From contig CAVVHL010000015.1 in NCBI GenBank assembly GCA_963748065.1, positions 422-64,421 on the forward strand: a DNA stretch of 64,000 bases. Reading direction: 5' to 3'. Numbering within the stretch: position 1 is the stretch's first letter; each line of letters starts with the position of its first letter. Below the pieces are notes generated by a model, which had not been told where the DNA came from, did no database searches, and saw only the letters and a program-made list of their open reading frames with translations. Shown here piece by piece: positions 37,740-64,000 of this stretch. The DNA is from an uncultured Chloroflexia bacterium (GTDB lineage: Bacteria > Chloroflexota > Anaerolineae > Anaerolineales > Anaerolineaceae). The position numbers and the translations under genes are program-made.

Positions 37740-38798
37740 TTACATCAGCAGGCTCATCACCGCTTTCTGGGCATGCAGGCGGTTCTCAGCTTCATCAAAG
37801 ATCGCTGAGCGCCAGCCGAGGCCTTCCGTCTTGTCCATCACATCATTGTTCACTTCGTAGCCGCGGTCCGCGGGCAGGCAGTGCATGTAGATGGCTTTCT
37901 TGTCGCAGGTATCCATCAGTTCGCTGGTGGTCTTCCAGTCCTTGAAGGAATCCATGATCTCCTGCGATTTATCGAAGTCATATTCCCCAACCGGGGGCTG
38001 GAACAGGGTCACAGGCGCCCAGGCCTTGGGATAAACGGCGTTCGCGCCTTTGAAACCTTCTGCGAAATCGTTGGTGATCTTGAACGAGCCGCCTGCGTCA
38101 TCGGCGTAGGTCTCGCACTGCTGGATGATATCGGGCGCCAGGTCGAAGCCCTTCGGATGCGCCAAAGTCACGTTCATGCCCAGCATGGTTGCATAGAGGA
38201 TCGCCGACTGTGGGACCGCACGCGGTTTGTGCACGCTGGGTGAATAGGCCCAGGACATGGTGAAGTTCACGCCCTTGAAGCCGCCGAACTCTTCCTTCAC
38301 CGTGAGCATATCGGCCAGACCCTGGAATGGATGGTAAATGTCATCTTCCATGTTCAGGACCGGGATATCAGACCAGCGAGCGAATTCCTGCAGCAATTTA
38401 TGTGAGCCGCCATATTCCCATTCCACCGGGTCACCGTAGCAGCGGATTGCAATGGCATCACCCATTCGGCTGAGCACACGAGCCACATCAGAAACCCGCT
38501 CAGTGCTGTAGGCGACTTCTTTGCCTTCCAGTGCAGGGGTATAGATCTTGTTGGGGTCCAGGAAATGCGCGTGCCCGCCAAGCTGGGTCATGCCCGCCTC
38601 GAATGAGTTGCGCGTGCGCAAAGACTGGTTATAGAACAGCATAAAGAGTGTCTTCGTGCGCAGCAGGTCATCATGGAAAATGCCCATTGCCTTTTGCTGC
38701 TTCAATTCCTCTGCCACATCGAGGATCGTGTTAATCTCCTGAGGCGTGAAATCCGTTTCAGCTAAGAAATCACGACCTTTGAAACCTGTTGTCTTCAT
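37740..38798 (-). CDS. knotted carbamoyltransferase, YgeW / N-acyl-ornithine transcarbamylase-like
   Basis: 352 aa. Carbamoyl-phosphate motifs 'SLRTR', 'HPFQ' and 'HCLPADRG'. 'MSWAYSPSVHKPRAVPQ' and 'VYPKAWAP' resemble the YgeW-type knot region as I recall it. The C-terminal 'DEAENRLHAQKAVM' resembles AOTCase. Confidence 0.8.
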   Translation of the reverse strand: MKTTGFKGRDFLAETDFTPQEINTILDVAEELKQQKAMGIFHDDLLRTKTLFMLFYNQSLRTRNSFEAGMTQLGGHAHFLDPNKIYTPALEGKEVAYSTERVSDVARVLSRMGDAIAIRCYGDPVEWEYGGSHKLLQEFARWSDIPVLNMEDDIYHPFQGLADMLTVKEEFGGFKGVNFTMSWAYSPSVHKPRAVPQSAILYATMLGMNVTLAHPKGFDLAPDIIQQCETYADDAGGSFKITNDFAEGFKGANAVYPKAWAPVTLFQPPVGEYDFDKSQEIMDSFKDWKTTSELMDTCDKKAIYMHCLPADRGYEVNNDVMDKTEGLGWRSAIFDEAENRLHAQKAVMSLLM

Positions 38799-38875
38799 AA
38801 AATTCTCCTTTAATCACAATAATCGATATCATTGGTGGTCGAAACCATCTACCTGCATTGGCTGTTTTCGTAAAA

Positions 38876-41729
38876 TTAACAGATTATTTGTAATAAATTT
38901 CTCCTTTTCACCTCGTTTTGTTTCAAGCAAAATTCAACACGAATTAATCCTTCATTCCGGATCGCTGCGAGGATCTTTTCTTTGGTTGCGGGCAGATCTC
39001 TGATCCAGACCCCAACGGCATCGTGGATCGCATTGATCACGGCCGGCGCGGTCGGTGTGATCGCCAACTCACCCATACCCTTTGCGCCGAACGGTCCCAA
39101 TGGATGCGGTGGATCGACGACCGGGATAGCGACGATTTCGGGAATATCCCTGAAACGCAGCAGACCTAAATCCTTCAGACGAGTTGTTTGGGGGATGCCA
39201 TCCTCGATCTGATACGATTCGCTCAAGGCATACCCCAAACCCTGCACAGCAGCCCCTTCGATCTGGCCGACGACGTTCTTATAGATGATCGGCGTACCAG
39301 AGTCATGCGCAGCAATCACTTTATGCACTTTGACTTCACCCGTCTCCTCATTGACAGACAGGATGATGGCCTGTGCGCCGAAGTCATACGCAAAGTGCAG
39401 TGGTGCGTCCGGCACATCCGGATGTGTTTCCGCGTGGTCTGGCGGAAGCTGTGTGGTCGGGGCGTCATAATGGGCTTCGAATGTGAAATCAATCCCATCC
39501 GCAGCTAGTTCAGCCAAAGAAATCAAATCTCGTCCGTTTTCCGTATCGACGAATTTCTCATTATCAATCGCAAGATTTTCTTTCGGGACCTGGAATTCGT
39601 TTGATATGGCTTCCCACAACTTCTCCCGCAGACCTTCAGCGGCTAGTCGAACGGCATTACCGGTCACAAACGTCGCCCGTGAGGCGGTCGTCATCCCGCC
39701 GTGGGGATCATAGCGGGTGTCTCCGGTGTGTACTCGGACCTTCGACATCGGCACACCAAGTATCCTGCGCTGTGATGGTCGCAGCCACCTGGACGGACCC
39801 CTGTCCCATATCTGCGGCGCCATGACGGATCAGGAATGTGCCATCTTCCTCTAGGCTGGCTCGCGCGCCTGCCTGGTCAGGTATGTTCATGCCAAGGCCA
39901 ACATTTTTATAAGCGCAGCCAATGCCCACACCCAACTTCTCATTTTCACCCACTTCAGGAAGCTCGATTTCAGAGAGTTTTTGTTTCACTGCGGATAAGC
40001 ATTCCACCATCCCAGCGCCAACATTCTTCGTGAGGACATCACCGGTGATGGTCACCTTGCCAATATCCAGAGCATTCTTCAACCGTGCGTCGATGGGATC
40101 CAGACCCAATTCATCGAGCATGTGCTGGACATGAATTTCAGCGGCGAATGTGGACTGCGGACTGCCGTAGCCTCTGAAAGCGCCGCAGGGATTGTTGTTC
40201 GTATGCACCGCATAAGTATTTACTTCCACATTCGGCACTTCATATGGACCGCATGCGAAGGCCATCATCCGGAACAGGACTGCCTCACCGGCAGAAGCAT
40301 AAGCGCCTGTGTCGCCGTAGATATTGACCTCCGCGGCTTTCAGCATACCGTCTTTAGTTATCCCCATCTTGTAATGGAGTTCGGCTGCATGTCGTTTATA
40401 ACTGACCAGGATCGATTCTGCCCGGCTCCAGTGGAACTTGACCGGGCGACCGGTGAGATACGCCGCCAAAGCGGCATGGATTTGTCCGGCCACATCCTCT
40501 TTCCCACCGAAGCCACCGCCCATATACATATGCGCGATCTCAACCTGCTCAACATCGACTCCCATGACATGTGCGACCTGGTGGCGGTCGTCAGTTGGAC
40601 CCTGACTGCCGACATACACCTTGATTGTGCCATCGTCTTCTATGACGCCAATACTCGTTTCCGGCTCCATATAGGCATGTTCAATAAAAGGAACGGTATA
40701 GTCCTGCTCGTAAATCAGGTCCAATTCATCGAATCCTTTTTGGATGTCGCCTTTGCCGACATGCCAGTGGATCAGCACATTGGGTTGTTCCGGATTGGCC
40801 TCGATCAGTCTCGGGTGCAAGACTGGCGCATCAGGTTTGAGTGCATCGGTGATCGTTGCGACCACCGGCAAAGGTTCAATCTCCACCTCGATCGCGTCCA
40901 GCGCTGACTGCACCTGCTCTTCGGTTTCGCCAACCACGAGCGCTAACGTATCGCCAACATAAAGCACCTTTTCGGTACAGAACACACGTTGATCGGATTG
41001 AATGCAGCCAAAGATGTTCTCGCCGGGGATGTCCTTGCTGGTGATGATTCTGACGATCCCGGGCATCTGTTCCGCTTTACTGAAATCGACTTTCTTTACG
41101 ATGCCATGGGGCACTTTGGCGCGCAACGCTTTACCGACAAGCATGTCCTTGAAACTCAGGTCATTGGTATACAACAATTTCCCGGTGAGCTTATCCAGCG
41201 TCAGATATTCATTCGCGGTATCTTCTGCAGTCCAGGTGCTTTCCTCGTCCCCACGCATGATTGCGGCGGCACGTTTGATCGCCTCGTCCATCCGGGCAAG
41301 GCCGACACACCGGCACAAGGTACCCGAAATAGCTCGTTCGATCTCCTGATCGGTCGGGTTGAGGTTCTCATCAAGCAGTGCTTTAGCGGACATCAATGCC
41401 CCTGGCGCGCAATACCCACACTGGAAAATACCGTCCTGGATGACCGTCTGCAGGAGTGGATGTGGCATTTCGGTACCTTCCACAGTCAGGCTTTCAATTG
41501 TCTCCACAACTGCGCCATCGAGTGCTGACATTCTTCGGGTGCAGGAAATTCGCGCCCTGCCGTCGATAATGACCTTGCACAAGCCGCAGGTCCCTTCGCT
41601 GTCACAGCCCTGTTTCGTTCCGGTCAGGCCCATTTTTTCGCGAAGATATTTTAACAATGGCCAATCGAAGTACTTCGGTTCCACCTCGACCGCTTTACCA
41701 TTTATGGTCACTGTCACTTTATCCAGCAT
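38876..41729 (-). CDS. single-polypeptide molybdenum hydroxylase (2 x [2Fe-2S] plus MoCo domains, no FAD domain; MOP/XdhD-like architecture); frame break near 39765
   Basis: N-terminus 'GCDSEGTCGLCKVIIDG...ISC' and 'QCGYCAPG...CRCVG' are the two Fe-S sites. 'GGGFGGKEDV' is the MoCo-domain block. ORFs 39708..41729 and 38876..39823 join as '...VQVAATITAQ / RILGVPMSKVRVHTGDT...'. Confidence 0.8.
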
Positions 41730-43419: not shown

Positions 43420-44226
43420 CTAAATATCAATCACAAGATCTGTCAGTTTGACGCAATCTCCACCGTCAATGGTCAGGCATTGACCGGTAACAAAACTGGA
43501 CTCATCTGAGGCGAAGTATAGGGCTGCATAAGCCATATCGGCGGGATGGCCCTGCCGGTCAGTCATCGGCTCTTTACGGATCAGGTTCTTTGTCAATGGC
43601 TTAACAACCGGATCCTTGATCGGTTCGTACCAGAACAATCCCGGGCGCAGACAGTTGACCCGAATGCCGTCCTTCAGATAGTCGTTCGCCATGTTCATCG
43701 CCATATCGATCATGCCGGCTTTGGTATAGGCATAAACAGGGTTTGCCATCCGGCGCACATTCTCCGAAGCGGTGACAAAAATGATCGATCCGCCATGCCC
43801 CTGTTTCAGCATCTGAATAACAGCCGCGCGTGAGGTGTTATAGACAGCCATCAGGTTGCTTTCAATAATCCGGTCGAAAGCTGTCGGACTGATCTCATGC
43901 AGTTTCTTATCCAACTCAACCCAACCACCGCCGATGTTGTTATACAACACATCCAGCCGGCCGTAAGTATCCACGGCAATGGAAATCATTTTTTCGACAT
44001 CGTCGGGATTGGTCGCATCCCCCGGTGCGACCGCGACCTCACCACCTTGCCCCCGGATCATGCCGGCTGTTTCTTCCAACACGGCTTCCCGACGGGCTGA
44101 GATAACAACCTTCGCACCTTCCTGGGCGAAGAGCAACGGTGCGCTGCGTCCCATGTGTTCCCCTGCCCCAACAACCAAAACGACTTTATTTTCCAACCGG
44201 TTCATCGGTTCTCTCCTTTCAACCAA
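43420..44226 (-). CDS. short-chain dehydrogenase/reductase (SDR)
   Basis: 268 aa. Rossmann 'VLVVGAGEHMGRS', 'NNIG', and catalytic 'YAYTKAG'. Confidence 0.8.
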   Translation of the reverse strand: MVERREPMNRLENKVVLVVGAGEHMGRSAPLLFAQEGAKVVISARREAVLEETAGMIRGQGGEVAVAPGDATNPDDVEKMISIAVDTYGRLDVLYNNIGGGWVELDKKLHEISPTAFDRIIESNLMAVYNTSRAAVIQMLKQGHGGSIIFVTASENVRRMANPVYAYTKAGMIDMAMNMANDYLKDGIRVNCLRPGLFWYEPIKDPVVKPLTKNLIRKEPMTDRQGHPADMAYAALYFASDESSFVTGQCLTIDGGDCVKLTDLVIDI

Positions 44227-44239: not shown

Positions 44240-45661
44240 TTACTTCTTCACAATCGATCGCCAGTACGGGCCTTCCTTGGGCCAGGGCGCAGCTAACAGC
44301 GCTCTGGTTTCAGGGCCGGCTATTTCGATCAGGTTCTTGCGGGCTGCCATAGCCTCTTCCAGGACCTGACCTTCATCCATCGTCAGGACTTCACGATCTT
44401 TCATCACAACCTGTCCATCAATAACGGTATGTTTCACGTCACCACCATTGGCCGAATAGATCAGCTTTGGCAGCCAGCGACCGTCCGGAAGCAAATGCGG
44501 TTTATTGAAATCGATGACGGCGATATCCGCCCGTTTCCCGACTTCCAAAGAACCAACCTGCTTCTCCAAACCGAGTACTGCAGCGCCATTGCGGGTCAGC
44601 ATGTTCATGATATCTTCCGCCGTCACTGCCTCCGCATCCAACTGGGGTGCTTTCTGCAGAATCGCAGCCGCTCGCCCGACTTCCAGCATGTCATAGGTAT
44701 AGCTGGCTGCGCCGTCCGTCCCCAGGCCAACTTTGATCCCACGGCTTAGCATATTACTAACCTTGGCGATGCCGTAGCCCAGATAAGCGTTTGCCACCGG
44801 GCAGTGGACGACTTTGGTATCTGTTTCCGCCATGATCGCCAACTCCCGGTCCGACAACCAGACCGCATGGAACATCACACCTTTCGGCCCGGTGAGGCCA
44901 AGTGTATTGAAATGCTCAAGGTCGCGTTCACCAAACCGGCGCATCGTATATGAATTGATCTCAATCCAACCCGCCACGTGGGTGCTGACGTTGATGTCCA
45001 GTTCCTTAGCCAGTTCCACGGTCTTGAGCATCATACCTTCACTGATATCTTCAGTGGAACCCGGTCCCAGAGCAACCGTCGTCCGGCGGGTGTTGTGCCA
45101 CTGTTTGAAGAAACGCCGGGCTTCATTTACCAGCGTATCTTCCTTCTGGATCATGGTCATATATTCCGAATCGGTTCGTTCACCGGCAAAAGTCTGATCC
45201 AGCAAACCAAAAACCATTTGCGCCCGAATACCCGCCTTGTCGAAGGTCTCCGTCACCCGGTAGATATTCTGCATATCGGTGTGCAGGTACCAGTGGTCCG
45301 AAACGGTGGTCACACCATTCTTGATCAATTCAAGCGCCGCCAGAGCCGCGCCGGCCTGGGCGTGCATCGGTTGTATCTTCGAGACCACCGGGAAGAGGAA
45401 GCGCCAGTTCCAGGGATCAAAATGCATGTCGTAACCAATCCCCTCGATCGTGGATTGGTAAACGTGGGTATGCCCATTGATAAAACCGGGCGATACCACG
45501 CAGTTCTCAGCGGACAGGGTCTCTTTGGCTTCATATTCCAGATTCTGCCCAATCTCAACGATTTCACCATCATTGATCGCCACATCACAATTCTCGATCA
45601 CACGATTTTCCGGATCCATTGTGATCACGGCGCCGTTCTTAATTAAAAGGTCTACACTCAT
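44240..45661 (-). CDS. amidohydrolase-superfamily deaminase/hydrolase (TRZ/ATZ, 8-oxoguanine/isoxanthopterin-deaminase-like)
   Basis: 473 aa. 'PGFINGHTHVYQS' HxH motif, 'VSTHVAG', 'HAVWL', and a C-terminal 'GLGTDGA' metal-ligand Asp. Confidence 0.75.
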   Translation of the reverse strand: MSVDLLIKNGAVITMDPENRVIENCDVAINDGEIVEIGQNLEYEAKETLSAENCVVSPGFINGHTHVYQSTIEGIGYDMHFDPWNWRFLFPVVSKIQPMHAQAGAALAALELIKNGVTTVSDHWYLHTDMQNIYRVTETFDKAGIRAQMVFGLLDQTFAGERTDSEYMTMIQKEDTLVNEARRFFKQWHNTRRTTVALGPGSTEDISEGMMLKTVELAKELDINVSTHVAGWIEINSYTMRRFGERDLEHFNTLGLTGPKGVMFHAVWLSDRELAIMAETDTKVVHCPVANAYLGYGIAKVSNMLSRGIKVGLGTDGAASYTYDMLEVGRAAAILQKAPQLDAEAVTAEDIMNMLTRNGAAVLGLEKQVGSLEVGKRADIAVIDFNKPHLLPDGRWLPKLIYSANGGDVKHTVIDGQVVMKDREVLTMDEGQVLEEAMAARKNLIEIAGPETRALLAAPWPKEGPYWRSIVKK

Positions 45662-45694: not shown

Positions 45695-47014
45695 CTATTG
45701 TCGTCTTATAAAAATACCCGTGCCGGGTTCGGGAACGATCGTTTCACCGTTCCAGATCTGCATGCCGCGGACCCAGGTACTTTCCACTTTTCCATCGAGA
45801 TGCCAACCCTCATAAGGTAAAAGGCTTGCTCTTGAATTTTCACCATAGGGCGCAACAATCCAGTTCGCATCCGGATTGAAGAGGACAAAATCCGCGTCCA
45901 TCCCGGGAGCGAGCTTGCCTTTCCGCCGATCAAAGCCAAAGATCTTCGCCGGGTTTTCAGATGTAACTTCCAGGAAGCGTGCCATGCTCAAACGTCCCTG
46001 CCCGATGGCAAGATGATAGAGCAGTGGCAATGACACTTCCAATCCAGGTATCCCGGCTTCTTTCTCTTTGAAACCAACCTGTCTTTCAGGGTCGGGCAGT
46101 TCACCCAAATAATGATCGCTGACCACCATATCGATCACACCGTCCGCCAACGCTTGCCAAAGATGTTCCGGGTTGCCTGCCTCCCGCAGCGGCGGCGTCG
46201 TCTTTACTCGTGCACCGTATTTCCGGAAGTCTTCACTGGAGAACGCCAGGAAATGCGGTGTGGTTTCGGCCGTCACATCCGTCCCCCAGCCGCGATATTG
46301 GTCAATCAGGTCAGCCGTCCGGGCTGCGGATACGTGACAGATATGGATCGGCGCGCCGGCTGCGTGTGCCATCTCTAACAGAAATGCTGCTGCAGCCGTT
46401 TCAGCAACCGGTGGTCTTGCGTTGGCAAACCCCAAGGGATCGCTCCAATCGACATCCTCACGCAAGCACGCCGATTCTTCGGCATGTAAAACCAACCGCA
46501 AACCGGTTCTCGCAGCCGTTTTCACCGCACTCCATAACACCTCGCGCGTGACAGGTGGCTCCGCCGGCATGAAGACTTTGAAACCTGCTGCACCGGCTTT
46601 GGCTACGCCATCCAGCCCCACCAGGTCTTGCGGTTCGACCACGATACCACCGTGGATACAAAAATCCGTGACGCAGTTTGCTTCCGCCTTTTCAACCCGA
46701 GCTTCAAATCCTTCTTGGGTCGCGCAAACATGGAAAGGCGGCATATCCACGACGGTCGTGATCCCGCCCACTGCAGCGGCACACGATCCGGGATAAAAGG
46801 TTTCCGCGCCGTCTTCGATATGCGCGTGGGCATCGATCCCGCCTGGTAACACCAGCCAGCCATTGGCATCGATGGTTTCAACATCTTCCGGTATTTGTTC
46901 GTTCGATGGCTCCTTAATCTCGACGATCTTTCCATCTGCGCCAATCAGCATGTCGGCGGTGCGGAATTCACCATCCAGCCATAGTTTTCCATTGATCAGA
47001 TGCTTTTTATTCAA
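45695..47014 (-). CDS. cyclic amidohydrolase (allantoinase / dihydroorotase / hydantoinase family)
   Basis: 439 aa. 'LPGGIDAHAHI' HxH, 'AGAAGFKVFM' (carbamylated-Lys context), 'LHAEE', 'HICHVS', 'VVSDH'. Confidence 0.75.
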   Translation of the reverse strand: MNKKHLINGKLWLDGEFRTADMLIGADGKIVEIKEPSNEQIPEDVETIDANGWLVLPGGIDAHAHIEDGAETFYPGSCAAAVGGITTVVDMPPFHVCATQEGFEARVEKAEANCVTDFCIHGGIVVEPQDLVGLDGVAKAGAAGFKVFMPAEPPVTREVLWSAVKTAARTGLRLVLHAEESACLREDVDWSDPLGFANARPPVAETAAAAFLLEMAHAAGAPIHICHVSAARTADLIDQYRGWGTDVTAETTPHFLAFSSEDFRKYGARVKTTPPLREAGNPEHLWQALADGVIDMVVSDHYLGELPDPERQVGFKEKEAGIPGLEVSLPLLYHLAIGQGRLSMARFLEVTSENPAKIFGFDRRKGKLAPGMDADFVLFNPDANWIVAPYGENSRASLLPYEGWHLDGKVESTWVRGMQIWNGETIVPEPGTGIFIRRQ

Positions 47015-54662: not shown

Positions 54663-55628
54663 TTATGCCCTTGCAATCTGCACGCTCTCATCATCACCCT
54701 CATCATCGATCCCGGCTTTTTTCCGTCTTTCAGCGATAATCGCGGACAAGAAGAGCACAATAATGGTCATGATATACGGCAGCATCAACACGATCTGTGA
54801 AGGTAATCCGAACTGCTGCAATCTGACCGCCAGGGCGTCGGCAAAGCCGAAGATCAGGCAGGCGATCATACTGGGTACAGGTCGCATTCGCCCAAAGTTG
54901 ATCGCGGCCAATGCCAACCAACCTCTGCCTGCCGTCATATTCTCGGAAAACAACGTGAGATAACTGAGCGAGAGGAAAGTCCCTCCAAGCGCACAAAAAA
55001 GCCCACTGAGCATCAGCCCGATATATTTCATACGCTTTGTGTTGACGCCGATCGATTCTGCAGCATCAATCTTTTCGCCCACCGACCGCAATCTGTATCC
55101 AAAGGGTGTTTGATATAACACCAAATAAGTGATATATACACTGACGAATGAAAGGTAAACGAGTGGGAAGTGCCCACTGATTAGATCACCCAGGATAGGA
55201 ATATCCTTAATGAGCGGGATATCAACCGTATGGAACCCAACGATCAGGTCGGTTTTATAAACACCGTAAACATTCAGAATTGCAGTCAACAAATAGTTCG
55301 TCAAACCGATTGCGACGATGTTCATCGCCAAGCCAACAATAACTTCGTTGGCTTTTAATTCCAAATGCAGGATGGCAAAGACCAGACTGACAACCAGACA
55401 GGCTACAATTGCGTACAACAAGCCGCCGTAGATGCTGCCGGTTTGAACGCTGCCCAGAACGGCAAAGAAGGAACCAATCAGCATGAACCCTTCCAGGGCA
55501 ACATTGAAAATCCCGGTATGGCTGGAGAAGATCCCGCCCATCGTGGCAAAAATGATCGGTGTAGCCATCCGCAGGGCGGCGGCAAAGAGTGAAATTGTGA
55601 GGATACTACTCAGGTCAACGCCAACCAT
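54663..55628 (-). CDS. ABC transporter permease (BMP/nucleoside-type, YufQ/NupQ-like)
   Basis: 321 aa and polytopic. Paired with a second permease, a duplicated ATPase and a BMP lipoprotein. Confidence 0.8.
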   Translation of the reverse strand: MVGVDLSSILTISLFAAALRMATPIIFATMGGIFSSHTGIFNVALEGFMLIGSFFAVLGSVQTGSIYGGLLYAIVACLVVSLVFAILHLELKANEVIVGLAMNIVAIGLTNYLLTAILNVYGVYKTDLIVGFHTVDIPLIKDIPILGDLISGHFPLVYLSFVSVYITYLVLYQTPFGYRLRSVGEKIDAAESIGVNTKRMKYIGLMLSGLFCALGGTFLSLSYLTLFSENMTAGRGWLALAAINFGRMRPVPSMIACLIFGFADALAVRLQQFGLPSQIVLMLPYIMTIIVLFLSAIIAERRKKAGIDDEGDDESVQIARA

Positions 55629-56707
55629 TTTTTGAGTCCCTTTCTAATCTGCTTGAGGAATACAGTCGCTGTCACGAAAAGGACCACTGTCCCCTTGACC
55701 ATTTGAACCACAGCCTGGGGAACACCCGTGATGGATTGCATCGTCAGCGCGCCATTAGCAAGTGCACCGTAGAACAAAGCTGTTGGGAAAACCGCGAATG
55801 GGTTATTCTGAGCGATGATCGCAATCATGAAGCCATCCCAACCATATCCGGAAGAGAAGCCACCCATGAATCGTCCGAAGAAGCCCTGGATCATAATCGC
55901 ACCCCCCAAACCGATAAGCCCACCGCTCATTGTCATCGCCAGGATCATACTCCGTTTAACCGGCAGACCGGCTGCTGCGGCAAATTTTTCATTCAAACCA
56001 ACCATGCGCAGCTCATACCCGATTTTTGTTTTGAACAAGAACCAATACATCAGGAAGACCAGCGCAATTGCGATCAAAAAGCCAATGTTGATCGTTGAAC
56101 CAGGAATCAATTTCGGTAGTTTCGCCGATGCTGCAATGACAGGCGAACCGGCCATAGGAGCAGTCGGATCCTTGAAGGGGAATGCAATCAGATAATCCGT
56201 AAGTCCAATGCCGATATAATTGAGCATTAAAGTGGGCACCAGCTCCGGGACCTTCCAGCGCATCTTGAGATAAAGCACCGGGAGCGTCCACAATGCGCCG
56301 CCGATGATGCCAGCCAGAAGGCATAACGGGATATGGATATAACTGGGTAAATTCGTAAACGTGAAACCAACCCAGGCAGCTGCAAAAGCACCGATATATA
56401 ATTGGCCTTCCAAGCCGAGGTTAATGATATTGGTCTTGAAAGCAATTGCACCGGCAAGCCCAGCCAGGATCATGATGGTTGATCGGTCCAGGGTGTCGGC
56501 AAACCGGTAACCGTTTCCGAATGCACCCTGCCAAAGAGCAGCGTAGGCTTCCCATGGATTTTTTCCTGACAGATACATTACCACTGCGCCGATCATAAGA
56601 GCGATCGCAATGATGATCACATAATTCAACAATTGCGTTGTAACATTGACAATATTTTCTTTCCAATGTGCGGTGTTTTTTGCTTTGCTCATGGACCTCC
56701 TAGTCAT
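55610..56707 (-). CDS. ABC transporter permease (BMP/nucleoside-type, YufP/NupP-like)
   Basis: 365 aa and polytopic. Overlaps both neighbouring genes, consistent with translational coupling. Confidence 0.8.
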   Translation of the reverse strand: MTRRSMSKAKNTAHWKENIVNVTTQLLNYVIIIAIALMIGAVVMYLSGKNPWEAYAALWQGAFGNGYRFADTLDRSTIMILAGLAGAIAFKTNIINLGLEGQLYIGAFAAAWVGFTFTNLPSYIHIPLCLLAGIIGGALWTLPVLYLKMRWKVPELVPTLMLNYIGIGLTDYLIAFPFKDPTAPMAGSPVIAASAKLPKLIPGSTINIGFLIAIALVFLMYWFLFKTKIGYELRMVGLNEKFAAAAGLPVKRSMILAMTMSGGLIGLGGAIMIQGFFGRFMGGFSSGYGWDGFMIAIIAQNNPFAVFPTALFYGALANGALTMQSITGVPQAVVQMVKGTVVLFVTATVFLKQIRKGLKKWLALT

Positions 56708-58224
56708 CGCACAATTCCTCTCCGGATGTCATCAAACAACTCACCCGTCTACGGATATCATCATCGTACGATCCGGCATCGAAGAGCCGACCTTCATAAA
56801 AGACAACGATGCGATCACTCAGTGCCAGGATTTCATCCAGATCGGCTGAAATTACAAATACTGCTGCGCCGCGGTTGGCATATTCCACCAACATCTGCCG
56901 GATTGCTTCTGTGCCAGCGATATCGATCCCACGTGTAGGCTGAGAGGCGATGACGACCTTCGCTTTTTCAGGCCCAAGTTCACGTGCTGCAATGACCCGC
57001 TGGATATTGCCACCGGACAGGTTTGCTGTTTTGACTTCAAGGCCGGGCGTTGATACGTTGAATTTATGTACCAAACCATCTGACATCTGAATGATCTCCG
57101 GCATAATCAGGGAGACACCTTTTGAATAAGGTTGTGAGTAATATTCCCCGGAGACCATATTCTCCCAAATAGCCGCATCGATAGCGACGCCGGCATCGTA
57201 GCGGTCCGATGGGATATAAGCGACACCCGCTTCACGGATATCCCTGGTGTGCAGGTCCTGGATTTCCTTGCCATCAATAGTGATCGTCCCACACCTTACC
57301 GGTCGCAATCCCAGGATCGCTTCGACAAATTCTTCCTGTCCATTGCCATCCACACCAGCGCCGCCGACGATTTCACCCGAAAACAGCTTCAGACTGGCGT
57401 TCTTGACTGCACGCAGATCCCGGTTGTCAAGGACGGTCATATGAATGACCTCCATGACGAGATCGCCCGGTTCAGACTTTTCCCGAAGGCGCCCACCAAT
57501 AGTTTCGCGGCCGACCATCATTTCCGCCAGTTGGCATTCATCCGTTTCCGAACACTTGACAGTCCCAACAAGTTTCCCACCGCGCATGACAGAAATATCA
57601 TCCGATATTTCCAAAACTTCTCTTAATTTATGACTGATAAATAAAATCGTAATGCCTTGCTTCACCAGGTTCTGCAGCATTACAAATAATTCCTTGGTTT
57701 CCATATCCGTCAGGACAGCCGTCGGTTCATCCAAAACGAGGATCTCAACACCACGATACAACGCCTTCAGGATCTCCGCACGCTGTTGTTCTCCCACGGA
57801 AACATCCGCCGTGATCTCTTTTTCATTAATTTGGAAACCGTATTTTTGAGCGATTTCCTGAACGCTCTTATTCAGTTCGTTCTCATCAATGAAAATGCTT
57901 TTCTTTGGTTCCACACCTAGCGCAATATTGTGGGCTAATGTGTATGAAGGTACAAGCTTAAAATGTTGATGCACCATGCCAATCCCCTTGGCGATGGCAT
58001 CTCGGGGACTGGAAAATGAGACTTCTTCATTATTAATGAATATCTTTCCTGAATCTGGTTTCATCAGCCCATAAATGATATTCATCAATGTCGTTTTTCC
58101 GGCACCATTCTCACCCACGATGGCACGAATCGTCCCCTTTTCGATTGAAAGAACTCAAATCGTCATTCGCAACGACACCGGGAAAGGTCTTCGTGATATT
58201 CTTGACGGATAGTGCTTCTGTCAT
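56700..58224 (-). CDS. ABC transporter ATP-binding protein with two fused ATPase domains; frame break near 58150
   Basis: Listed ORF begins at Walker A 'GENGAGKTT'. The true N-terminus 'MTEALSVKNITKTFPGVVANDDLS' (ATG 58224) is in another frame. First-domain 'VLDEPTAVL'. Second-domain 'LSGGNIQR' and 'VIASQPTRGID'. Confidence 0.8.
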
Positions 58225-58300
58225 AAGGATTCACCAACCTTGAATTCAATAGAAAGTGGGCCTTCTCTATCGTGAAAAGGCCCACTTATCATTTTATTAA

Positions 58301-59395
58301 CTACTGAGGACGCTCCACAACGATCTCACCGGATGTGATTGCAGCTTTGATCTCATCAATCTTGTCCTTCACAGCCTGCGGGATTGCATCGCCCATGGCG
58401 GACATATCGGTGATATCCATCACGCCATCAGCAACACCGTAGAGGATCTCGCCGGGTTCGAGGGTACCATCGATGAACCGAGCGATAACGTTATAAACTT
58501 CAACGTCAGTCTTCTTGAGTACGGAGGTCAGGATATGACCGGGTACCTGCTGATCCCAATCAACATCTGCGCCAATACCGTACAGACCTGTTTCTTGAAC
58601 GGCCTCGAAGACGCCAACATCGCCAGGGGAACCGGAAACGGACATGATGATATCGACGCCCTGATCCTGGAACATGGCCTTCGCCAGTTCTTTTGCCTTC
58701 GCCGGGTCATTGAATGAGCCGACATAGGAGATGTTCACCTGGATTTCAGGATCGATATATTTCGCGCCTGCTTCATAACCGCTGAACCAACGAACAACGC
58801 TGGGGACTTCCATGCCACCAACGAAGCCGATGATCTTGTCAGCATTGATGCCGGCCAAATCAGTTTCGGTGGTCATCATAGCTGCCAGAGCACCAGCCAG
58901 GAAGGAACCTTCCTGTTCCTGAGCGATCAAGCCAACGGTATTATCCAGACCGGGATTACCATCCACCAAAGCGAACATGGTGTCCGGGAAATCCGGCGCA
59001 ACGTTCGCAATCGCATCGTTCATGGTATTGCCGACGCCGATGATCAGTTCATAGCCGTCCTGAGCTGCCGTGCGGACATTGCGTTCCCATTCTTCGGCCA
59101 CTTCACTCTCAAGGATGCGCTCTTCAAAACCAAAGTCTGCTGCGGCCTGTTTGTAGCCAACACCGGACAGGTACATGAAGCCTTCCTTGCCGACACGACC
59201 AGCGGGAACCAAAGCGATCTTTGGAGGTTCTTTGGTTTCAACCATTTCTTCTGTCGCGGTCATTTCTTCTGTCGCAACCATTTCCTCTGTTGGTGCCATT
59301 ACTTCTTCTGTTGGCGCAGGGGTCTGGGTCTTGCAAGAAGTCAGAACAGTCATCGCGATCAAAATAGCAACAACTAAGATCCTCATCTTTTTCAT
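58301..59395 (-). CDS. BMP-family (Med/PnrA-like) ABC substrate-binding lipoprotein
   Basis: 364 aa. Lipobox 'LTSC' and a repetitive 'APTEE(V/M)...TEEMV' linker. 'GFVGGMEVP' and 'DVD' blocks are typical of BMP proteins. Confidence 0.8.
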   Translation of the reverse strand: MKKMRILVVAILIAMTVLTSCKTQTPAPTEEVMAPTEEMVATEEMTATEEMVETKEPPKIALVPAGRVGKEGFMYLSGVGYKQAAADFGFEERILESEVAEEWERNVRTAAQDGYELIIGVGNTMNDAIANVAPDFPDTMFALVDGNPGLDNTVGLIAQEQEGSFLAGALAAMMTTETDLAGINADKIIGFVGGMEVPSVVRWFSGYEAGAKYIDPEIQVNISYVGSFNDPAKAKELAKAMFQDQGVDIIMSVSGSPGDVGVFEAVQETGLYGIGADVDWDQQVPGHILTSVLKKTDVEVYNVIARFIDGTLEPGEILYGVADGVMDITDMSAMGDAIPQAVKDKIDEIKAAITSGEIVVERPQ

Positions 59396-59550: not shown

Positions 59551-60336
59551 CTATCTAGGCGTCTGTGCAGCCTCACGAAGTTTGGAAATACCGGCTTTTG
59601 CGCCATTGCGGAGAAAGACAATATCATTCGAATAGGTAATGATCTTCATGCCGCGTTTCTGCCATTCAATCAACCACTCCAGGTTTCCGATATGGATACC
59701 GCATGGGACATTGTGTTTAAGACAGGCATCCAATACCTTCTGCATCGTCGGTTCAAGCGCGGCCAGGTAATCCTTCTCATGAATACCCATGCTCAGGCAA
59801 AGGTCATTCGGACCGATCACAACCGCATCGACGCCTTCGACCGTGACCAGATCTTCAATGTTTTCAATAGCCTTTTTCCGTTCAATTTGCAGGATGATCA
59901 TGACTTCTCGGTTAGCCTGTTCTGTGAATTCCCACATATCACCCGGCAGGAAGTTGTTATGCCCTTTTGGCACCGAGCAACCTCTGACACCGATCGGCGG
60001 ATAATGGGTATTGGAGATGATGCGTTCCACCTGCTCCCTGGTTTCAATCCGTGGGACCATGATTCCCATCGCGCCGGCATCCAGAATACGCGCCATCAAA
60101 TGATATTCATCATTCGGTACGCGAACCAAAGGAACAACCTTTGTCAATCGGGCTACCTTGACCATGTCAGTCACAACCCCGATATCATTGGGGCCGTGTT
60201 CCATATCAAAGAACATGAAATCGCAACCGGCTTGCTCCATGATCATTGAGATTGAAGGTGAGCGCGAATCCTGCGCCATCGTACCGTAGATCGCTTCTCC
60301 CTTTTCCAGCTTTAGTCGTAGTGGATTAGGTTCCAT
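59551..60336 (-). CDS. HpcH/HpaI-family 2-keto-3-deoxy-acid aldolase
   Basis: 261 aa. 'FFDMEHGP', 'VRVP', and 'GPNDLCLSMG' divalent-metal/aldolase blocks. Confidence 0.8.
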   Translation of the reverse strand: MEPNPLRLKLEKGEAIYGTMAQDSRSPSISMIMEQAGCDFMFFDMEHGPNDIGVVTDMVKVARLTKVVPLVRVPNDEYHLMARILDAGAMGIMVPRIETREQVERIISNTHYPPIGVRGCSVPKGHNNFLPGDMWEFTEQANREVMIILQIERKKAIENIEDLVTVEGVDAVVIGPNDLCLSMGIHEKDYLAALEPTMQKVLDACLKHNVPCGIHIGNLEWLIEWQKRGMKIITYSNDIVFLRNGAKAGISKLREAAQTPR

Positions 60337-60353: not shown

Positions 60354-61325
60354 TTATTTCTTTTGGTTTAGTACTTCTGGGTTTGCACAATAGAGCGGGG
60401 CTTCACCTTTGAGGACTTTCAGCACATCCTCAACGACCATCATGCCCATTCGCCGGCGGCCCTGATCGGTGAAGCTCGCCAGGTGCGGCGTCAAGACAAC
60501 ATTGTCCAATTCAAATAACGGGTTGTCATCCGATGGTGGTTCAGGGTCATAAACATCAATCCCTGCGCCGGCGATCACGCCATTCTGAAGCGCATCAATC
60601 AGCGCCGCCTCATCAACGACAGGACCGCGTGAGCAGTTAATTAAAATTCCTTCAGGGCCAAGCGCAGCGAGGACTTGCGCATTGATCAATTTGTGTGTAC
60701 TTTCGATGAAAGGAATATGAAGCGATACAATCTCAGATTTCTCCATCAATTCGATCAGGGTTTCACATTTCTCAGCACCTTTAGATGCTATAAATTCGGC
60801 ATTGACGAATGGATCGTAGACATAGACAGTCATATCAAATGCGGCCTTGCACATTTCAGCCAGACGCTGACCGATATGCCCAAAGCCCACAACGCCTAAT
60901 TTCGCATTGAGGAGTTCCCGTCCGACAACTTGGTCACGGATATGGAAGTTCCCTTTCCGAGTTTCACGATCGAGAAACACCACTTTCCTCGCAACTGCCA
61001 TCATTAACATCAAAGCATGTTCCGCTGTAGATTCCGTCGGACCATAGGGTGTAAAAACAACAGGGAGTTCACGGAGAGTTGCTTCGTTTACATCGACGAT
61101 GTCCAGTCCGACGCCGTGCCGACCAATGACTTCCAATTGTGTTGCGGCATCCATTTCATCCGCAAACATCTTCATTCCTGCGCAAAGAATCATCCCTTGG
61201 ATGTCAGGCAACATCTCGAGGATTTCTGCAGGCGATGAAGTGAATGGTGTCAGGACTTCCACTTCCTCAGCTAATCGGTTAAGGGCGTCTTCGTGAATGG
61301 GTTTGTTGACGAGTACTTTTTTCAC
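60354..61325 (-). CDS. D-isomer-specific 2-hydroxyacid dehydrogenase (glyoxylate/hydroxypyruvate reductase-like)
   Basis: 323 aa. 'LGVVGFGHIGQRLAEM' NAD motif. 'NCSRGPVVDE' and 'TPHLAS' catalytic Arg/Glu/His contexts. Confidence 0.85.
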   Translation of the reverse strand: MKKVLVNKPIHEDALNRLAEEVEVLTPFTSSPAEILEMLPDIQGMILCAGMKMFADEMDAATQLEVIGRHGVGLDIVDVNEATLRELPVVFTPYGPTESTAEHALMLMMAVARKVVFLDRETRKGNFHIRDQVVGRELLNAKLGVVGFGHIGQRLAEMCKAAFDMTVYVYDPFVNAEFIASKGAEKCETLIELMEKSEIVSLHIPFIESTHKLINAQVLAALGPEGILINCSRGPVVDEAALIDALQNGVIAGAGIDVYDPEPPSDDNPLFELDNVVLTPHLASFTDQGRRRMGMMVVEDVLKVLKGEAPLYCANPEVLNQKK

Positions 61326-61379
61326 AATTTACCTGCCATCTCCTTGTTGCTCAATGTTTATTGGATGAAAATATTCAGT

Positions 61380-62102
61380 TTAATTTTGTTCAAACTCTTC
61401 GATATAGGGTAAATAATTCCCAAGCGAGAATTCAATCAGCGCTTTCGTTGTCAGGTAAGCATTATCGGCATCGCGATCTCGAATGGCTTCCGCAACAGCA
61501 TGGTGCAGTAACCAGCCTTGTTCAGATAATGGCAAAACCTGGAATAATTTATCCAGGTTTGCAAAGAGTGTTTCGTTAATTTGAAAAAGGAAATTGTTAT
61601 TTGCCATATCGGCAATGTGCTTATGAAAGGCAAGGTCAAGTTCATGCAATTGATCCTGATCACTGTTTTCAAACGATCGTTTTTGTCGTTCAAGGATCTC
61701 GAATAAGTGGTTGATTTGCTCATCCGTACCGTGCTCTGCAGCCAGCCTGGACAATCCGGTTTCAATGACTCGGCGAGCTTCAAAGAACATCCTGATATCC
61801 ATTCCCCCGAGCAGCAGGCTCAACTCGATCAGTTTCTCGCCTGGATTGACCATGTGGTTCGAAACATAAGTTCCCGAGCCATGCTTCATTTCCAGAACAC
61901 CCATCGCCTGCAAGGAATACAATGCTTCTCGCAGCGAGGCCATGCTGACATCCATTTGGCTCGCCATTGCCCTTTGGGAGGGCAAACGTTCCCCGGGAGT
62001 CCAATAACCATCCCCTATCAGCTGCAAAATGTTATCGACGATTCCAGTAGTTACGTCTTTACGATGAATAGGTTGTATTTGGTTGGCTGTCATCATAGGC
62101 AC
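61380..62102 (-). CDS. GntR-family (FadR/FCD subfamily) transcriptional regulator
   Basis: 240 aa. wHTH 'GERLPSQRAMASQMDVSMASLREAL' and a helical FCD-like C-terminal domain. GTG at 62102 or ATG at 62096. Confidence 0.85.
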   Translation of the reverse strand: MPMMTANQIQPIHRKDVTTGIVDNILQLIGDGYWTPGERLPSQRAMASQMDVSMASLREALYSLQAMGVLEMKHGSGTYVSNHMVNPGEKLIELSLLLGGMDIRMFFEARRVIETGLSRLAAEHGTDEQINHLFEILERQKRSFENSDQDQLHELDLAFHKHIADMANNNFLFQINETLFANLDKLFQVLPLSEQGWLLHHAVAEAIRDRDADNAYLTTKALIEFSLGNYLPYIEEFEQN

Positions 62103-62135
62103 CGAATAAAGTCTTCATGTGTTCTGAACAATTCC

Positions 62136-62164: not shown

Positions 62165-62246
62165 GACTTTAACGATTTATTAATGCTGATTAACGCAAAT
62201 ACCCTTTTATTAACTTGTATTTTTTCTTAGTTAATTGACAAAAACT

Positions 62247-64000
62247 TTAGATTATTTTGCCTAATCCGCGTAAAACACGTTCCGGCGTAAGCGGAAAATC
62301 ATTGAACCAAACACCGGTCGCATCAAATAAGGCATCCGTGATCGCCGGCACCAATGGCATGAACGGCATCTCGCCCATCCCCCTTGCACCAAACGGCCCC
62401 TGGGGGTCGGGATATTCGAGAATGATTGGTACGACTTCCACAGGTACATCCAGTACGGTCGGTATCAGGTAATTTGAAAGCGTATTGGTCAAAACACGAC
62501 CTTCCTGTTGAATGAAATTTTCTAACAGCGCATATCCGGCAGCCTGAACGACGGCGCCATGCACCTGTCCCTCGACCTGCATCGGATTAATGGCTTTCCC
62601 GACATCATTCGAGCAAAAAACCTTGAGAATTCGGATTTCGCCGGTGTCCATATCCACTTCCAGATCAACCACTTCCGCGCTATAACCGTAGGTGATATTC
62701 GGCATACATTGCCCTGTGACCGGGTCGAATGTCGAAGTTTTGGGTGGATAATAGGTAAAATTTGCCTCCGCCGGCCGGTTTTCCTGACGCCATTTTTCAA
62801 GTGCATCAGTTGCCGCTCCACGAATGGCATTTCCTGCCATGAAGGTCATCCGTGACGCTGAAACACTCCCGGCATAATCGGACGTACTCGTATCGCAAAG
62901 ATCAAGTTCAACTTTATCGATTGGAATGCCCAACGCGTCGGCCGTCATCTGCTTAAAGACGGTATGCGACCCCTGCCCCACCTCTGCACCGGAATGATGA
63001 AGAACGGCTTTTTCAATTTCGCCTGCGCCGAACAGCGTCAGTCTTGCATTGCAGTATTCAGGTGCGCCAAAAGAGAACCCGACATTCTTGAAGCTGCAAG
63101 CCATCCCGCGCCCCTGCAGGACTCCGCTATCTTTATTCCGTTTTTTCTCTTTCCCAGCAACATGACCGTTAGTTGGCTGCCAATGACTTTCCTCAGCCAG
63201 TGTCTTCACAACCGGCCTGATCGTCACACCGGGTGGTAAAGGCGTTCCGACGCTCATCAGATCGCCTTCCTCGAACAAATTCTTCATCCTGAATGCCACC
63301 CGGTCCATGCCCAGCGCATCTGCCAGTTTATTGACCTGCATTTCAGAAGCGAATGTCCCTTGCGGACCGCCAAACCCCCTGAACGCGCCGGCGGGAATGT
63401 TGTTGGTATGGACAACTCTGGCATCCAGTTTCACGTTCGGAATATCATACGGACCAACGGACATTAAAGCCGCATTGCCCAGGACAGGCGTAGAGGAATA
63501 AGCGTAAGCACCCCCATCACCGGAAATATCGATTTCAGCAGCCATGATCCTGCCGTCCTTTGTGGCGCCCCATTTTGCTTTGATCGTAAATGCATGGCGT
63601 TTACCATGTCCGATGATCGATTCTTCCCGACTCCAGGTGATTTTCACCGGCCGAGAAATACCACGTTCGCGCAACTTGTGAACAGCCAAAGCCAGGACGA
63701 TCTGAATGGATACATCTTCCCTGCCGCCAAACGCCCCGCCAATGACTGGATAGATCACCCGCACCTGGTCCTCTGTCAGGCCCAGGGCATGCGCGATCTG
63801 GTGCCGGTCCTCATGATTGCACTGTCCACCGACCTGGACGGTAACGCGATCCTGGTCATCAATAAATGCCAAGCCGGCTTCCGGCTGCAGGTAAGCATGT
63901 TCCTGAGCCGGGGTATGATATTCGCCTTCTACGATGACATCGCAATCATCAAACCCCTCTTCCACATCGCCATGTCTGATGTGATACTCGCGAAAAACGT
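62247..64000 (-). CDS. xanthine-dehydrogenase-family molybdopterin-binding subunit (partial; N-terminus beyond the window edge)
   Basis: 'IGGAFGGREDVS' MoCo block and a long conserved C-terminal dimerisation region. The frame stays open to position 64000 upstream of the listed Met. Confidence 0.8.
   Translation of the reverse strand, partial: VFREYHIRHGDVEEGFDDCDVIVEGEYHTPAQEHAYLQPEAGLAFIDDQDRVTVQVGGQCNHEDRHQIAHALGLTEDQVRVIYPVIGGAFGGREDVSIQIVLALAVHKLRERGISRPVKITWSREESIIGHGKRHAFTIKAKWGATKDGRIMAAEIDISGDGGAYAYSSTPVLGNAALMSVGPYDIPNVKLDARVVHTNNIPAGAFRGFGGPQGTFASEMQVNKLADALGMDRVAFRMKNLFEEGDLMSVGTPLPPGVTIRPVVKTLAEESHWQPTNGHVAGKEKKRNKDSGVLQGRGMACSFKNVGFSFGAPEYCNARLTLFGAGEIEKAVLHHSGAEVGQGSHTVFKQMTADALGIPIDKVELDLCDTSTSDYAGSVSASRMTFMAGNAIRGAATDALEKWRQENRPAEANFTYYPPKTSTFDPVTGQCMPNITYGYSAEVVDLEVDMDTGEIRILKVFCSNDVGKAINPMQVEGQVHGAVVQAAGYALLENFIQQEGRVLTNTLSNYLIPTVLDVPVEVVPIILEYPDPQGPFGARGMGEMPFMPLVPAITDALFDATGVWFNDFPLTPERVLRGLGKII

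Follow-up and report, generated by a model that had tools for sequence, protein, structure and literature searches.

The window analysed here is a 64,000-nucleotide stretch of DNA from an uncultured Chloroflexia bacterium of the Anaerolineaceae (GenBank assembly GCA_963748065.1, contig CAVVHL010000015.1, positions 422 to 64,421). From position 37740 to the window edge, open reading frame listing with translation and Pfam searches define a minus-strand run of 21 homology-supported genes. With moderate confidence, we read this run as a catabolic operon of a Pelolinea-like member of the Anaerolineaceae, which would import and degrade an N-heterocycle of the riboside type, the likeliest candidate being a purine nucleoside or close analogue. 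Its genes and signals are, in the direction of transcription:

62247–64000 (−): XDH-family molybdopterin-binding (Mo) subunit, PucD-like, first gene, 5' end beyond the window (Pfam MoCoBD_1/MoCoBD_2)
62164–62136 (−): promoter-like TTGACA-17-TATATT, in the AT-rich gap between the Mo subunit and GntR genes
61380–62102 (−): GntR/FadR-type (FCD) regulator (Pfam GntR and FCD)
60354–61325 (−): D-isomer-specific 2-hydroxyacid dehydrogenase (Pfam 2-Hacid_dh, 2-Hacid_dh_C)
59551–60336 (−): HpcH/HpaI-family class II pyruvate aldolase (Pfam HpcH_HpaI)
58301–59395 (−): Bmp/PnrA-family lipoprotein, substrate-binding protein of an ABC importer (Pfam Bmp)
58255–58286 (−): internal hairpin followed by UUUCUAUU, between the binding-protein and ATPase genes (−25.4 kcal/mol, z = −7.1)
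56700–58224 (−): double ABC ATPase (Pfam ABC_tran twice), ATG at 58224, split by a +1 frameshift at ~58153
55610–56707 (−): ABC permease 1 (Pfam BPD_transp_2)
54663–55628 (−): ABC permease 2 (Pfam BPD_transp_2)
53645–54626 (−): ApbA/PanE-family 2-oxoacid reductase (Pfam ApbA and ApbA_C on two open reading frames), +1 frameshift at ~54121
52836–53645 (−): Amidohydro_2 protein of the LigI/lactonase-like group (Pfam Amidohydro_2 on fragments), three +1 frameshifts at ~53524, ~53262 and ~52944
51441–52760 (−): fusion of RpiB with a ketose 3-epimerase-like TIM barrel (Pfam LacAB_rpiB and AP_endonuc_2)
50604–51323 (−): short-chain dehydrogenase/reductase (SDR) a (Pfam adh_short; generic SDR matches only in NCBIfam)
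49824–50603 (−): SDR b (Pfam adh_short_C2)
48397–49759 (−): cog0402 amidohydrolase, 'SsnA-like', with a non-canonical HxxD (Pfam Amidohydro_1), +1 frameshift at ~49181
47011–48361 (−): cog0402 deaminase, 'MtaD/DadD-like', with the canonical HxH...HxxE (HICE motif), +1 frameshift at ~47866
45695–47014 (−): cyclic amidohydrolase of the allantoinase/hydantoinase/dihydroorotase group (family scores and PDB matches)
44240–45661 (−): cog0402 amidohydrolase, 'TRZ/ATZ-like', with HVAG and no catalytic Glu (Amidohydro_1)
43420–44226 (−): SDR c (Pfam), 75% identical to its orthologue in the related locus L005
41850–43355 (−): M81 metallohydrolase (Pfam DUF1485 and MlrC_C; PDB matches 3IUU and microcystinase C)
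38876–41729 (−): fused 2x[2Fe-2S] and Mo hydroxylase without a FAD domain (Pfam Fer2, Fer2_2, Ald_Xan_dh_C and MoCoBD), +1 frameshift at ~39765
37740–38798 (−): knotted carbamoyltransferase (Pfam OTCace_N and OTCace)
37681–37712 (−): terminator-type hairpin that ends the run (12-bp stem, −24.8 kcal/mol, z = −5.8)

These are exactly the 21 genes that the initial annotation of this DNA had named, all on the minus strand, and its domain assignments hold in Pfam and NCBIfam. Intergenic distances lie between −19 and +155 nt, and the plus-strand open reading frames within 37740–64000 overlap homology-supported genes and have no support of their own. The closing hairpin, likewise proposed by that annotation, was recovered by folding (0 of 200 shuffles fold as well); a simple terminator scan missed it because its loop is 10 nt long. 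The internal hairpin is a possible attenuating terminator, which would fit partial termination that raises expression of the binding protein over the rest of the operon. The promoter-like element is the best sigma-70-like match of the region (11/12) and suggests a second promoter upstream of the GntR gene; matches to the sigma-70 consensus are no more frequent in this region than in shuffled sequence. No repeated motif that might serve as a shared GntR operator was found in the ten intergenic regions searched. In two relatives (L088 and L097), the XDH-family Mo subunit (73% identical, about 731 aa) is preceded by unrelated genes, and it is therefore taken to start the cluster. The source contig is 65,057 bp long, which leaves at most about 1 kb outside the window.

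The cluster is a real, conserved, single functional unit and not a chance juxtaposition. Its orthologues co-occur in at least 13 Anaerolineae-type genomes and in four gene orders. Two relatives (59–92% protein identity, most genes 73–92%) share the order from GntR to the amidohydrolases, with all genes intact, and L089 has the Mo subunit additionally in front. A much more distant contig, OY969772.1 (contiguous L007 and L005, 53–80% identity), carries nearly the whole set in a different order, with an M20 enzyme in place of M81 and with transaldolase, aldehyde dehydrogenase and transketolase genes appended. The transferase lies directly beside the genes for GntR, 2-hydroxyacid dehydrogenase, HpcH aldolase, SsnA-like protein, Bmp protein, ABC ATPase, permeases and SDR in L021, L067, L068 and L072 (in L068, in the order transferase, GntR, 2-hydroxyacid dehydrogenase, HpcH, SsnA-like, Bmp, ABC, permeases, SDR), and a fourth gene order is seen in L019. 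Such window-type neighbours occur at 13 of the 73 loci around transferase orthologues, and at 10 of the 44 that are flanked by 5 kb or more on each side. Genes for transketolase, transaldolase/FSA and aldehyde dehydrogenase are recurrent neighbours of the transferase in relatives. The initial annotation had made its reading depend on synteny in relatives and had divided the cluster into a 'sugar' and a 'heterocycle' half; synteny is conserved, and the genes of the two halves interleave in shuffled orders, which therefore makes them one unit.

Some relatives carry additional genes that the window does not have. Between the RpiB fusion and the first SDR, L001 (11332–15534), L002 (11377–15581) and L020 have five extra genes. 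One encodes a 310-aa protein that Pfam does not match; the others encode an ECF transporter, which consists of two ATPases, CbiQ/EcfT and an S component whose ECF_trnsprt and RibU-like matches are weak. The same three loci also have a LacI regulator before the RpiB fusion.

The importer bears on the substrate class. The best PDB match of the binding protein is AtzT, which we take to be a base/atrazine binder, followed by Lbp, 4PEV, TmpC and BmpA; the riboflavin receptor RfuA (4IIL) is also matched. In BmpA and TmpC, ribose is engaged by Asp98, Asp225 and Lys242 (BmpA numbering), and Phe27 and Phe176 form an aromatic sandwich (PMC13325309). All three ribose-contact residues and both stacking aromatics are present at the aligned positions of the window protein (FALVD, GADVD, TSVLKK, EGF and GSF). 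AtzT, by contrast, has T/A and N/W at the positions of Asp98 and Lys242 and thus lacks two of the three ribose contacts. These retained residues support the prediction of a riboside-type importer. The base-recognition loop reads KEGFM, versus D-x-SFN in purine-nucleoside receptors. The associated double ATPase is recovered in two frames at 89% identity by tblastn with its 507-aa orthologue from L001.

Two Mo enzymes bear on the nature of the base. The XDH-family Mo subunit has pucD as its best NCBIfam match, below cutoff, and carries the motifs GGAFGGRE, FRGFGGPQ and GMGE. The fused hydroxylase, which corresponds to XdhD in its domain architecture, carries GGGFGGKE, FRGYGSPQ and GMGE, and its L005 orthologue comes closest to the Se-dependent XDH family TIGR03311 (708.7 against a cutoff of 830), with 374 against 1102 for the XdhD model TIGR03313. 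The motifs GGxFGG[KR]E, FRG[FY]G and GMGE presumably correspond to Glu802, Arg880 and Glu1261 of bovine XDH. XDH-type motifs in both enzymes make a purine-like base plausible.

Ring-opening functions may be found among the amidohydrolases. The nearest solved relatives of the three cog0402 enzymes are MTA/SAH/adenosine deaminases (the MTA/SAH deaminases of P. aeruginosa and C. violaceum, and DadD). The deaminase set (HxH, HxxE, His and Asp) is complete in the MtaD/DadD-like protein (HICE) and not in the SsnA-like (HHLD, within MHHLDD) or TRZ/ATZ-like (HVAG) proteins, which suggests that the latter two carry out a chemistry other than simple deamination. The SsnA-like protein is 92% identical to an intact orthologue in L001, and the TRZ/ATZ-like protein is the best conserved amidohydrolase of the set (80.5% identical to its L005 orthologue). 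Against the SsnA model, the cog0402 proteins of the window score 147–223 bits (cutoff 444), and they are 24–27% identical to E. coli SsnA, in which the motif is HAAE. The names 'SsnA-like', 'YgeW-like' and 'TRZ/ATZ-like' can thus be kept at the superfamily level, but no curated cutoff is reached and two of the three cog0402 enzymes lack the deaminase catalytic Glu. The cyclic amidohydrolase scores 289.7 for allantoinase (cutoff 357.85) and 259.6 for D-hydantoinase (cutoff 393), and its PDB matches are L-hydantoinase and allantoinase. The M81 gene adjoins the transferase gene in Pelolinea submarina, L019 and L021, and is replaced by an ArgE/DapE-type M20 enzyme in L007. Pelolinea submarina MO-CFX1 also has a different Bmp/Mo set. 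A literature search on M81/DUF1485 function and on purine degradation in Anaerolineae returned nothing that describes this cluster.

The carbamoyltransferase is the gene that connects this locus to other clusters. Its orthogroup spans 80 species-level genomes at 69–96% identity, and the nearest members come from an uncultured Chloroflexia metagenome-assembled genome (MAG; 96%), Pelolinea MAGs (89–93%) and Pelolinea submarina MO-CFX1 (90%). Knotted transcarbamylases are recognised by SxRT, HPxQ and HxLP motifs, a proline-rich loop and an extended 120's loop (PMC4581275, PMC4016543). The window protein has SLRT, HPFQ and HCLP together with both loops; its 120's region aligns without gaps to that of AOTCase and exceeds that of P. 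furiosus OTCase by 10 residues, the insertion WAYSPSVHKPRAVPQ being aligned to the AOTCase loop WTYHPKPLNTAVAN. The protein also retains counterparts of AOTCase E144 and K252. In AOTCase, these two residues form the pair that binds the second substrate, and their YgeW equivalents anchor the substrate carboxyl group (PMC4581275). Of the AOTCase specificity residues (X. campestris numbering), Asn185 is replaced by Pro and Lys302 by Glu, and the position of Glu92 is ambiguous (T-E versus E-E). The protein scores 267.9 for AOTCase (cutoff 288) and 183 and 174 for YgeW (cutoffs 453 and 500). Because the AOTCase residues are replaced, the YgeW length is absent and both scores fall below cutoff, the transferase is assigned on sequence criteria to an uncharacterised knotted-transcarbamylase subfamily that is neither AOTCase nor YgeW. 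A housekeeping role in the arginine pathway, considered in view of the 75–92% conservation, was set aside in the light of the genomic context and the specificity residues.

The same transferase is found in other genetic settings. At 37 loci, hereafter c-type, it stands beside an SsnA-like amidohydrolase (about 32% identical to that of the window) and separate Fe-S and Mo subunits, with one or two D-hydantoinases and a YgeY-family hydrolase, both passing curated cutoffs, as well as a UbiD decarboxylase, a luciferase-like oxidoreductase, a 5'-nucleotidase and another Bmp/ABC importer. Li et al. described a Chloroflexota variant of the reductive urate cluster without YgfK/UacX and with a putative F420-dependent 'luciferase family' dehydrogenase (PMC12507026). 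The 37 c-type loci match this variant of the reductive urate (2,8-dioxopurine) cluster. In the solved pathway, YgeW cleaves a ureido group of 2,3-diureidopropionate by phosphorolysis, after which carbamate kinase generates ATP (PMC12507026). In a neighbour-joining tree, which carries no support values, the window-type transferases are dispersed among the others, at four or more places, and the simplest reading is that one transferase function is used in several cluster designs.

Further observations concern the surroundings of this transferase. A second knotted paralogue, 42% identical to that of the window, adjoins a YgeY-family hydrolase in L045 (567–1604), at the same locus as the orthologous transferase; some genomes thus have two such transferases, possibly one per ureido group. 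A third context is found in L063 (3040–16946), with an FGGY kinase, an ADP-ribosylglycohydrolase-family protein, an AP_endonuc_2 TIM barrel, a sugar-type ABC transporter, an Amidohydro_3 protein and formylmethanofuran:H4MPT formyltransferase/GXGXG (Fhc-like) genes. The transferase is thus again linked to ribosyl/sugar genes in L063, and also to C1-carrier genes; a methenyl-H4MPT cyclohydrolase is encoded nearby in L045.

For the sugar moiety, the initial annotation had proposed an oxidative sugar-acid route. No sugar-acid dehydratase domain (IlvD/Edd, enolase or DHDPS type) was found in the 21 genes or among the families that recur in relatives, where transketolase, transaldolase/FSA and aldehyde dehydrogenase are the recurrent ones, and that route is unsupported. 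The RpiB half of the fusion passes TIGR01120 (175.8 against a cutoff of 138.65) and is the sole domain of the cluster to reach an equivalog cutoff. The TIM half matches IolO at the family level (261.8 against 300) and hydroxypyruvate isomerase at 84.6 (cutoff 353), and its best PDB match is TM0416 (E = 1e-48), with L-ribulose and D-psicose 3-epimerases next; in Chloroflexota, the fusion occurs widely. These results point to pentose isomerisation and epimerisation, which fits better than an oxidative sugar-acid route, and together with the transketolase and transaldolase/FSA of relatives the fusion would resemble a non-oxidative pentose module. Two other functions were considered for the TIM barrel. 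As for a 3-keto- or C-glycoside lyase acting by oxidative N-glycoside cleavage, the nearest structures are ketose 3-epimerases, and the sole keto-glucoside enzyme among the PDB matches is a weak partial match to an epimerase, so that this function lacks support; as for hydroxypyruvate isomerase, the scores are far below those of the epimerase reading.

The remaining redox and sugar genes are placed at the family level. The GntR orthologues adjoin the 2-hydroxyacid dehydrogenase gene in seven related loci (L001, L002, L007, L019, L021, L068 and L089). This dehydrogenase matches the PGDH and glyoxylate reductase models of NCBIfam below cutoff, and the HpcH aldolase scores about 141 bits for HpaI and GarL (cutoffs 369–407). 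The Amidohydro_2 gene, which lies in four frame segments in the window, has an L001 orthologue with PDB matches to 2FFI, LigI and 4MUP, LigI-type lactonases being the nearest; in relatives it overlaps the reductase gene, which is intact in L001 (325 aa). SDR b passes the broad 'glucose 1-dehydrogenase' subfamily NF005559 (262.3 against 215), and the L005 orthologue of SDR c sits between the Mo hydroxylase and the transferase. As a live alternative, the five dehydrogenases, the Amidohydro_2 protein and the HpcH aldolase may act on C3 ring fragments such as tartronate semialdehyde and hydroxypyruvate.

From the gene content, the conserved co-location, the family-level identities and the residue patterns described above, a pathway can be proposed, in which we infer the order of the steps, every substrate and the gain of ATP via carbamoyl phosphate. 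The riboside would enter through the Bmp/ABC importer and be deaminated by the sole canonical cog0402 deaminase, after which the two XDH-type Mo enzymes would hydroxylate (or dehydroxylate) it. The two non-canonical cog0402 amidohydrolases and the cyclic amidohydrolase would open the ring. The knotted carbamoyltransferase would then phosphorolyse one ureido group of the resulting ureido-acid to carbamoyl phosphate, in the manner of YgeW in the 2,8-dioxopurine pathway, and the M81 hydrolase would hydrolyse a second ureido or acyl group. The pentose would be converted by the RpiB/3-epimerase fusion, a route that transketolase and transaldolase may extend in many relatives, and the remaining carbon skeleton would pass to the five dehydrogenases, the lactonase-like protein and the pyruvate aldolase.

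The cluster is best read as an uncharacterised variant of anaerobic purine/nucleoside degradation, tied to the 2,8-dioxopurine pathway through the shared novel transferase. The initial annotation had suggested complete catabolism of a (modified) purine or pterin-like nucleoside; the riboside-type importer, the XDH-type Mo motifs and the conservation as one unit speak for this part of its proposal, while its oxidative sugar route gains no support and no enzyme that cleaves a glycosidic bond was found in the window. On the evidence of the sequence, the substrate may be a purine, a pterin or a modified nucleoside. A bolder version, to which we attach little credence, would have a purine-type nucleoside dismantled anaerobically, by a route not yet described and without a classical nucleosidase or phosphorylase: the non-canonical cog0402 enzymes would open a ring still attached to the sugar or in step with it, the knotted subfamily common to three Chloroflexota cluster types would conserve energy as carbamoyl phosphate, and the RpiB/3-epimerase would salvage the pentose, bypassing Rpe.

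Several points weigh against nucleoside degradation. The window encodes no nucleoside phosphorylase, nucleoside hydrolase or sugar kinase, so that nothing in it accounts for the separation of base and ribose, and no Fe-S/FAD partner of the XDH-type Mo subunit is present beside it in L088 or L097, or anywhere in the window. Apart from the RpiB domain, no equivalog cutoff is reached. The corresponding E. coli enzymes are only 27–34% identical, and YgfK, YgfM, YgeX, YgeY, YqeA, YqeB and YqeC of E. coli have no tblastn match in the 64-kb window; carbamate kinase and yqeB/yqeC, to which the initial annotation had drawn attention, are thus missing from it (selD was not searched). Pfam likewise gave no DHO_dh or YgfK-type (UacX) gene in the window. 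The Bmp family also includes the riboflavin receptor RfuA, leaving room for ribityl compounds. The absence of support values from the transferase tree counts here as well, and the nine frameshifts, if real, would inactivate six genes.

Among the competing explanations, a free purine base (urate, xanthine or guanine) as the only substrate is unlikely, though it accounts for the missing nucleoside-cleaving enzyme. The 'sugar' enzymes would then process C3/C2 ring fragments (tartronate semialdehyde, hydroxypyruvate and glyoxylate), like Hyi, GlxR/GarR, GhrB and GarL in the allantoin/glucarate pathways of E. coli. The GarL/HpaI-like aldolase, the dehydrogenase resembling glyoxylate/hydroxypyruvate reductases, the AP_endonuc_2 domain, whose fold includes hydroxypyruvate isomerase, the cyclic amidohydrolase scoring nearest to allantoinase, and AtzT, presumably a base/atrazine binder, as best match of the binding protein would all be consistent with this. 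However, the binding protein has the three ribose contacts of which AtzT lacks two, and the TIM domain is far nearer to the ketose 3-epimerases (IolO and TM0416) than to hydroxypyruvate isomerase and has as its fusion partner a domain scoring above the RpiB equivalog cutoff. Transketolase and transaldolase are, moreover, recurrent in relatives.

A riboside or ribityl heterocycle other than a purine is similarly unlikely; examples would be glycosides of pterin or lumazine, flavins or deazaflavins, and modified or antibiotic nucleosides. The loop KEGFM in place of D-x-SFN, the match to RfuA and the unusual catalytic motifs of two of the three cog0402 enzymes could be accommodated by such a substrate. 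SDRs include pteridine reductases, which may be counted on the same side, as may the RibU-like match (E = 7e-4) of the ECF S component in close relatives, but this match is under the Pfam threshold. Both Mo enzymes have the Glu/Arg pair that we take to be typical of xanthine dehydrogenases, and the transferase orthogroup is otherwise embedded in urate-type clusters; both points favour the purine-type nucleoside.

It is also doubtful that the locus is a decaying, non-functional remnant. Nine single-base frameshifts split six genes within 26 kb, against none in the 7.8 kb of neighbouring genes (19.4–27.3 kb) comparable with L008, and the Amidohydro_2 gene, with three shifts, is only 66% identical to its orthologue. 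At 0.35 shifts per kb, however, a 7.8-kb stretch free of shifts would arise with a probability of about 0.07, so that the difference is not significant. All the shifts change the frame in the same direction, which points to a technical bias, and each of the seven that can be aligned to intact L001 orthologues is a 1-nt insertion in the window. The six genes are intact in relatives. In the window, they contain no in-frame stops or larger lesions, their amino-acid identity is equally high on either side of the shifts (e.g., 92%/92% and 89%/85%), and they are not more diverged than the intact genes of the cluster. Because similar split genes occur in the related long-read MAGs L006 and L008, identity is even across the shifts and in-frame stops are absent, the shifts are probably due to an artefact of sequencing or assembly rather than to decay, although the neighbouring 7.8 kb shows none.

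Finally, a fortuitous juxtaposition of a sugar-acid operon, a nucleoside importer and an arginine-biosynthetic OTCase/AOTCase is highly improbable: the transferase lies just under the AOTCase cutoff, is unusually well conserved and is called ornithine or acetylornithine carbamoyltransferase by public sources, but components of both halves recur around it in the 13 or more genomes in shuffled orders, AOTCase N185 and K302 are replaced, it adjoins amidohydrolases or Mo enzymes in 36 of 44 well-flanked loci, and no arginine-biosynthesis family was found by Pfam or NCBIfam in the four neighbourhoods scanned (L022, L045, L063 and L068).

Downstream of the cluster, a segment of about 10 kb with low G+C content (27303–37740; 0.37–0.44 versus about 0.50 on both sides) separates the transferase gene from a peptide/oligopeptide ABC operon. 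It contains genes for an MFS transporter (36255–37541), a PAS protein (31694–32401) and an HD_5 (HD-GYP-like) protein (32379–33455), as well as open reading frames without a match in Pfam, and may represent an inserted island. In the closest relative, L008, only about 2 kb lies between the transferase gene and the peptide operon. The operon itself (19187–25364; SBP_bac_5, permeases and two oligo_HPY ATPases) is conserved in L008 and collinear with its counterpart there, at 87–97% protein identity.

Anaerolineae are abundant in anaerobic digesters, sediments and activated sludge, where they are thought to live on cell debris. To our knowledge, no route is known by which they would use N-heterocycles derived from nucleic acids. 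Only in 2025 was the reductive urate pathway elucidated, in gut bacteria, by authors who noted divergent versions in Chloroflexota (PMC12507026). The present locus is a second, larger Chloroflexota design around the same carbamoyltransferase. Its substrate, if found, would allow a function to be assigned to families which, to go by the searches with the transferase and the RpiB fusion, are well represented in metagenomes, and the binding protein, the transferase subfamily and the two amidohydrolases with altered catalytic residues are testable targets.

Among known systems, the reductive urate cluster of E. coli and Clostridia (PMC12507026; bioRxiv 10.1101/2025.04.24.650524), which in E. coli comprises xdhD-ygfM, ygfK, ssnA, hyuA, ygeW, yqeA, ygeY and ygeX, has catalysts of the same kinds as the window, in corresponding logical roles: a fused Fe-S/Mo hydroxylase, cog0402 and cyclic amidohydrolases, a knotted carbamoyltransferase and a metallo-amidase. 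The initial annotation had noted four component types in common with the ygeW-ssnA-hyuA-xdhD neighbourhood; the enzyme types do correspond, but identities in the comparison with xdhA-ygfT are limited to 34% (YgeW and the transferase), 29% (HyuA and the cyclic amidohydrolase), 27% (SsnA and the SsnA-like protein) and 29% (XdhD and the fused Mo enzyme), which does not amount to orthology. Unlike the urate cluster, the window has no YgfK/UacX-type reductase, YgeX, carbamate kinase or yqeB/yqeC, and it has M81 instead of the M20 enzyme YgeY. Beyond that cluster, it has three cog0402 enzymes, a second Mo subunit, the predicted Bmp/ABC riboside importer, the RpiB-epimerase fusion, five dehydrogenases, a lactonase-like protein and the HpcH aldolase.

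The importer resembles PnrA, BmpD and BmpA systems in its fold family, in its layout (lipoprotein, double ATPase and two permeases) and in the ribose Asp/Asp/Lys and two stacking aromatics, and differs from them in the N-terminal base-recognition loop and in belonging to a catabolic rather than a salvage operon. At 352 aa, the transferase is shorter than YgeW (396 aa), being without the additional terminal helices and the long 240's insertion of the latter, and has the N185 and K302 of AOTCase replaced; with both YgeW and AOTCase (Xanthomonas ArgF'), it shares SxRT/HPxQ/HCLP, the extended 120's loop, the loop rich in proline, and equivalents of E144/K252.

The c-type clusters (for example L022 and L045) do not have the HpcH aldolase, 2-hydroxyacid dehydrogenase, ApbA reductase, Amidohydro_2 protein, RpiB fusion or M81 hydrolase, and their amidohydrolases and Mo enzymes are 30–46% identical to those of the window and are therefore paralogues. 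In common with the window, they have the orthologous carbamoyltransferase (74–82% identity), together with a Bmp/ABC importer in L045 (25–37% identical to that of the window) and a GntR-family regulator in L022.

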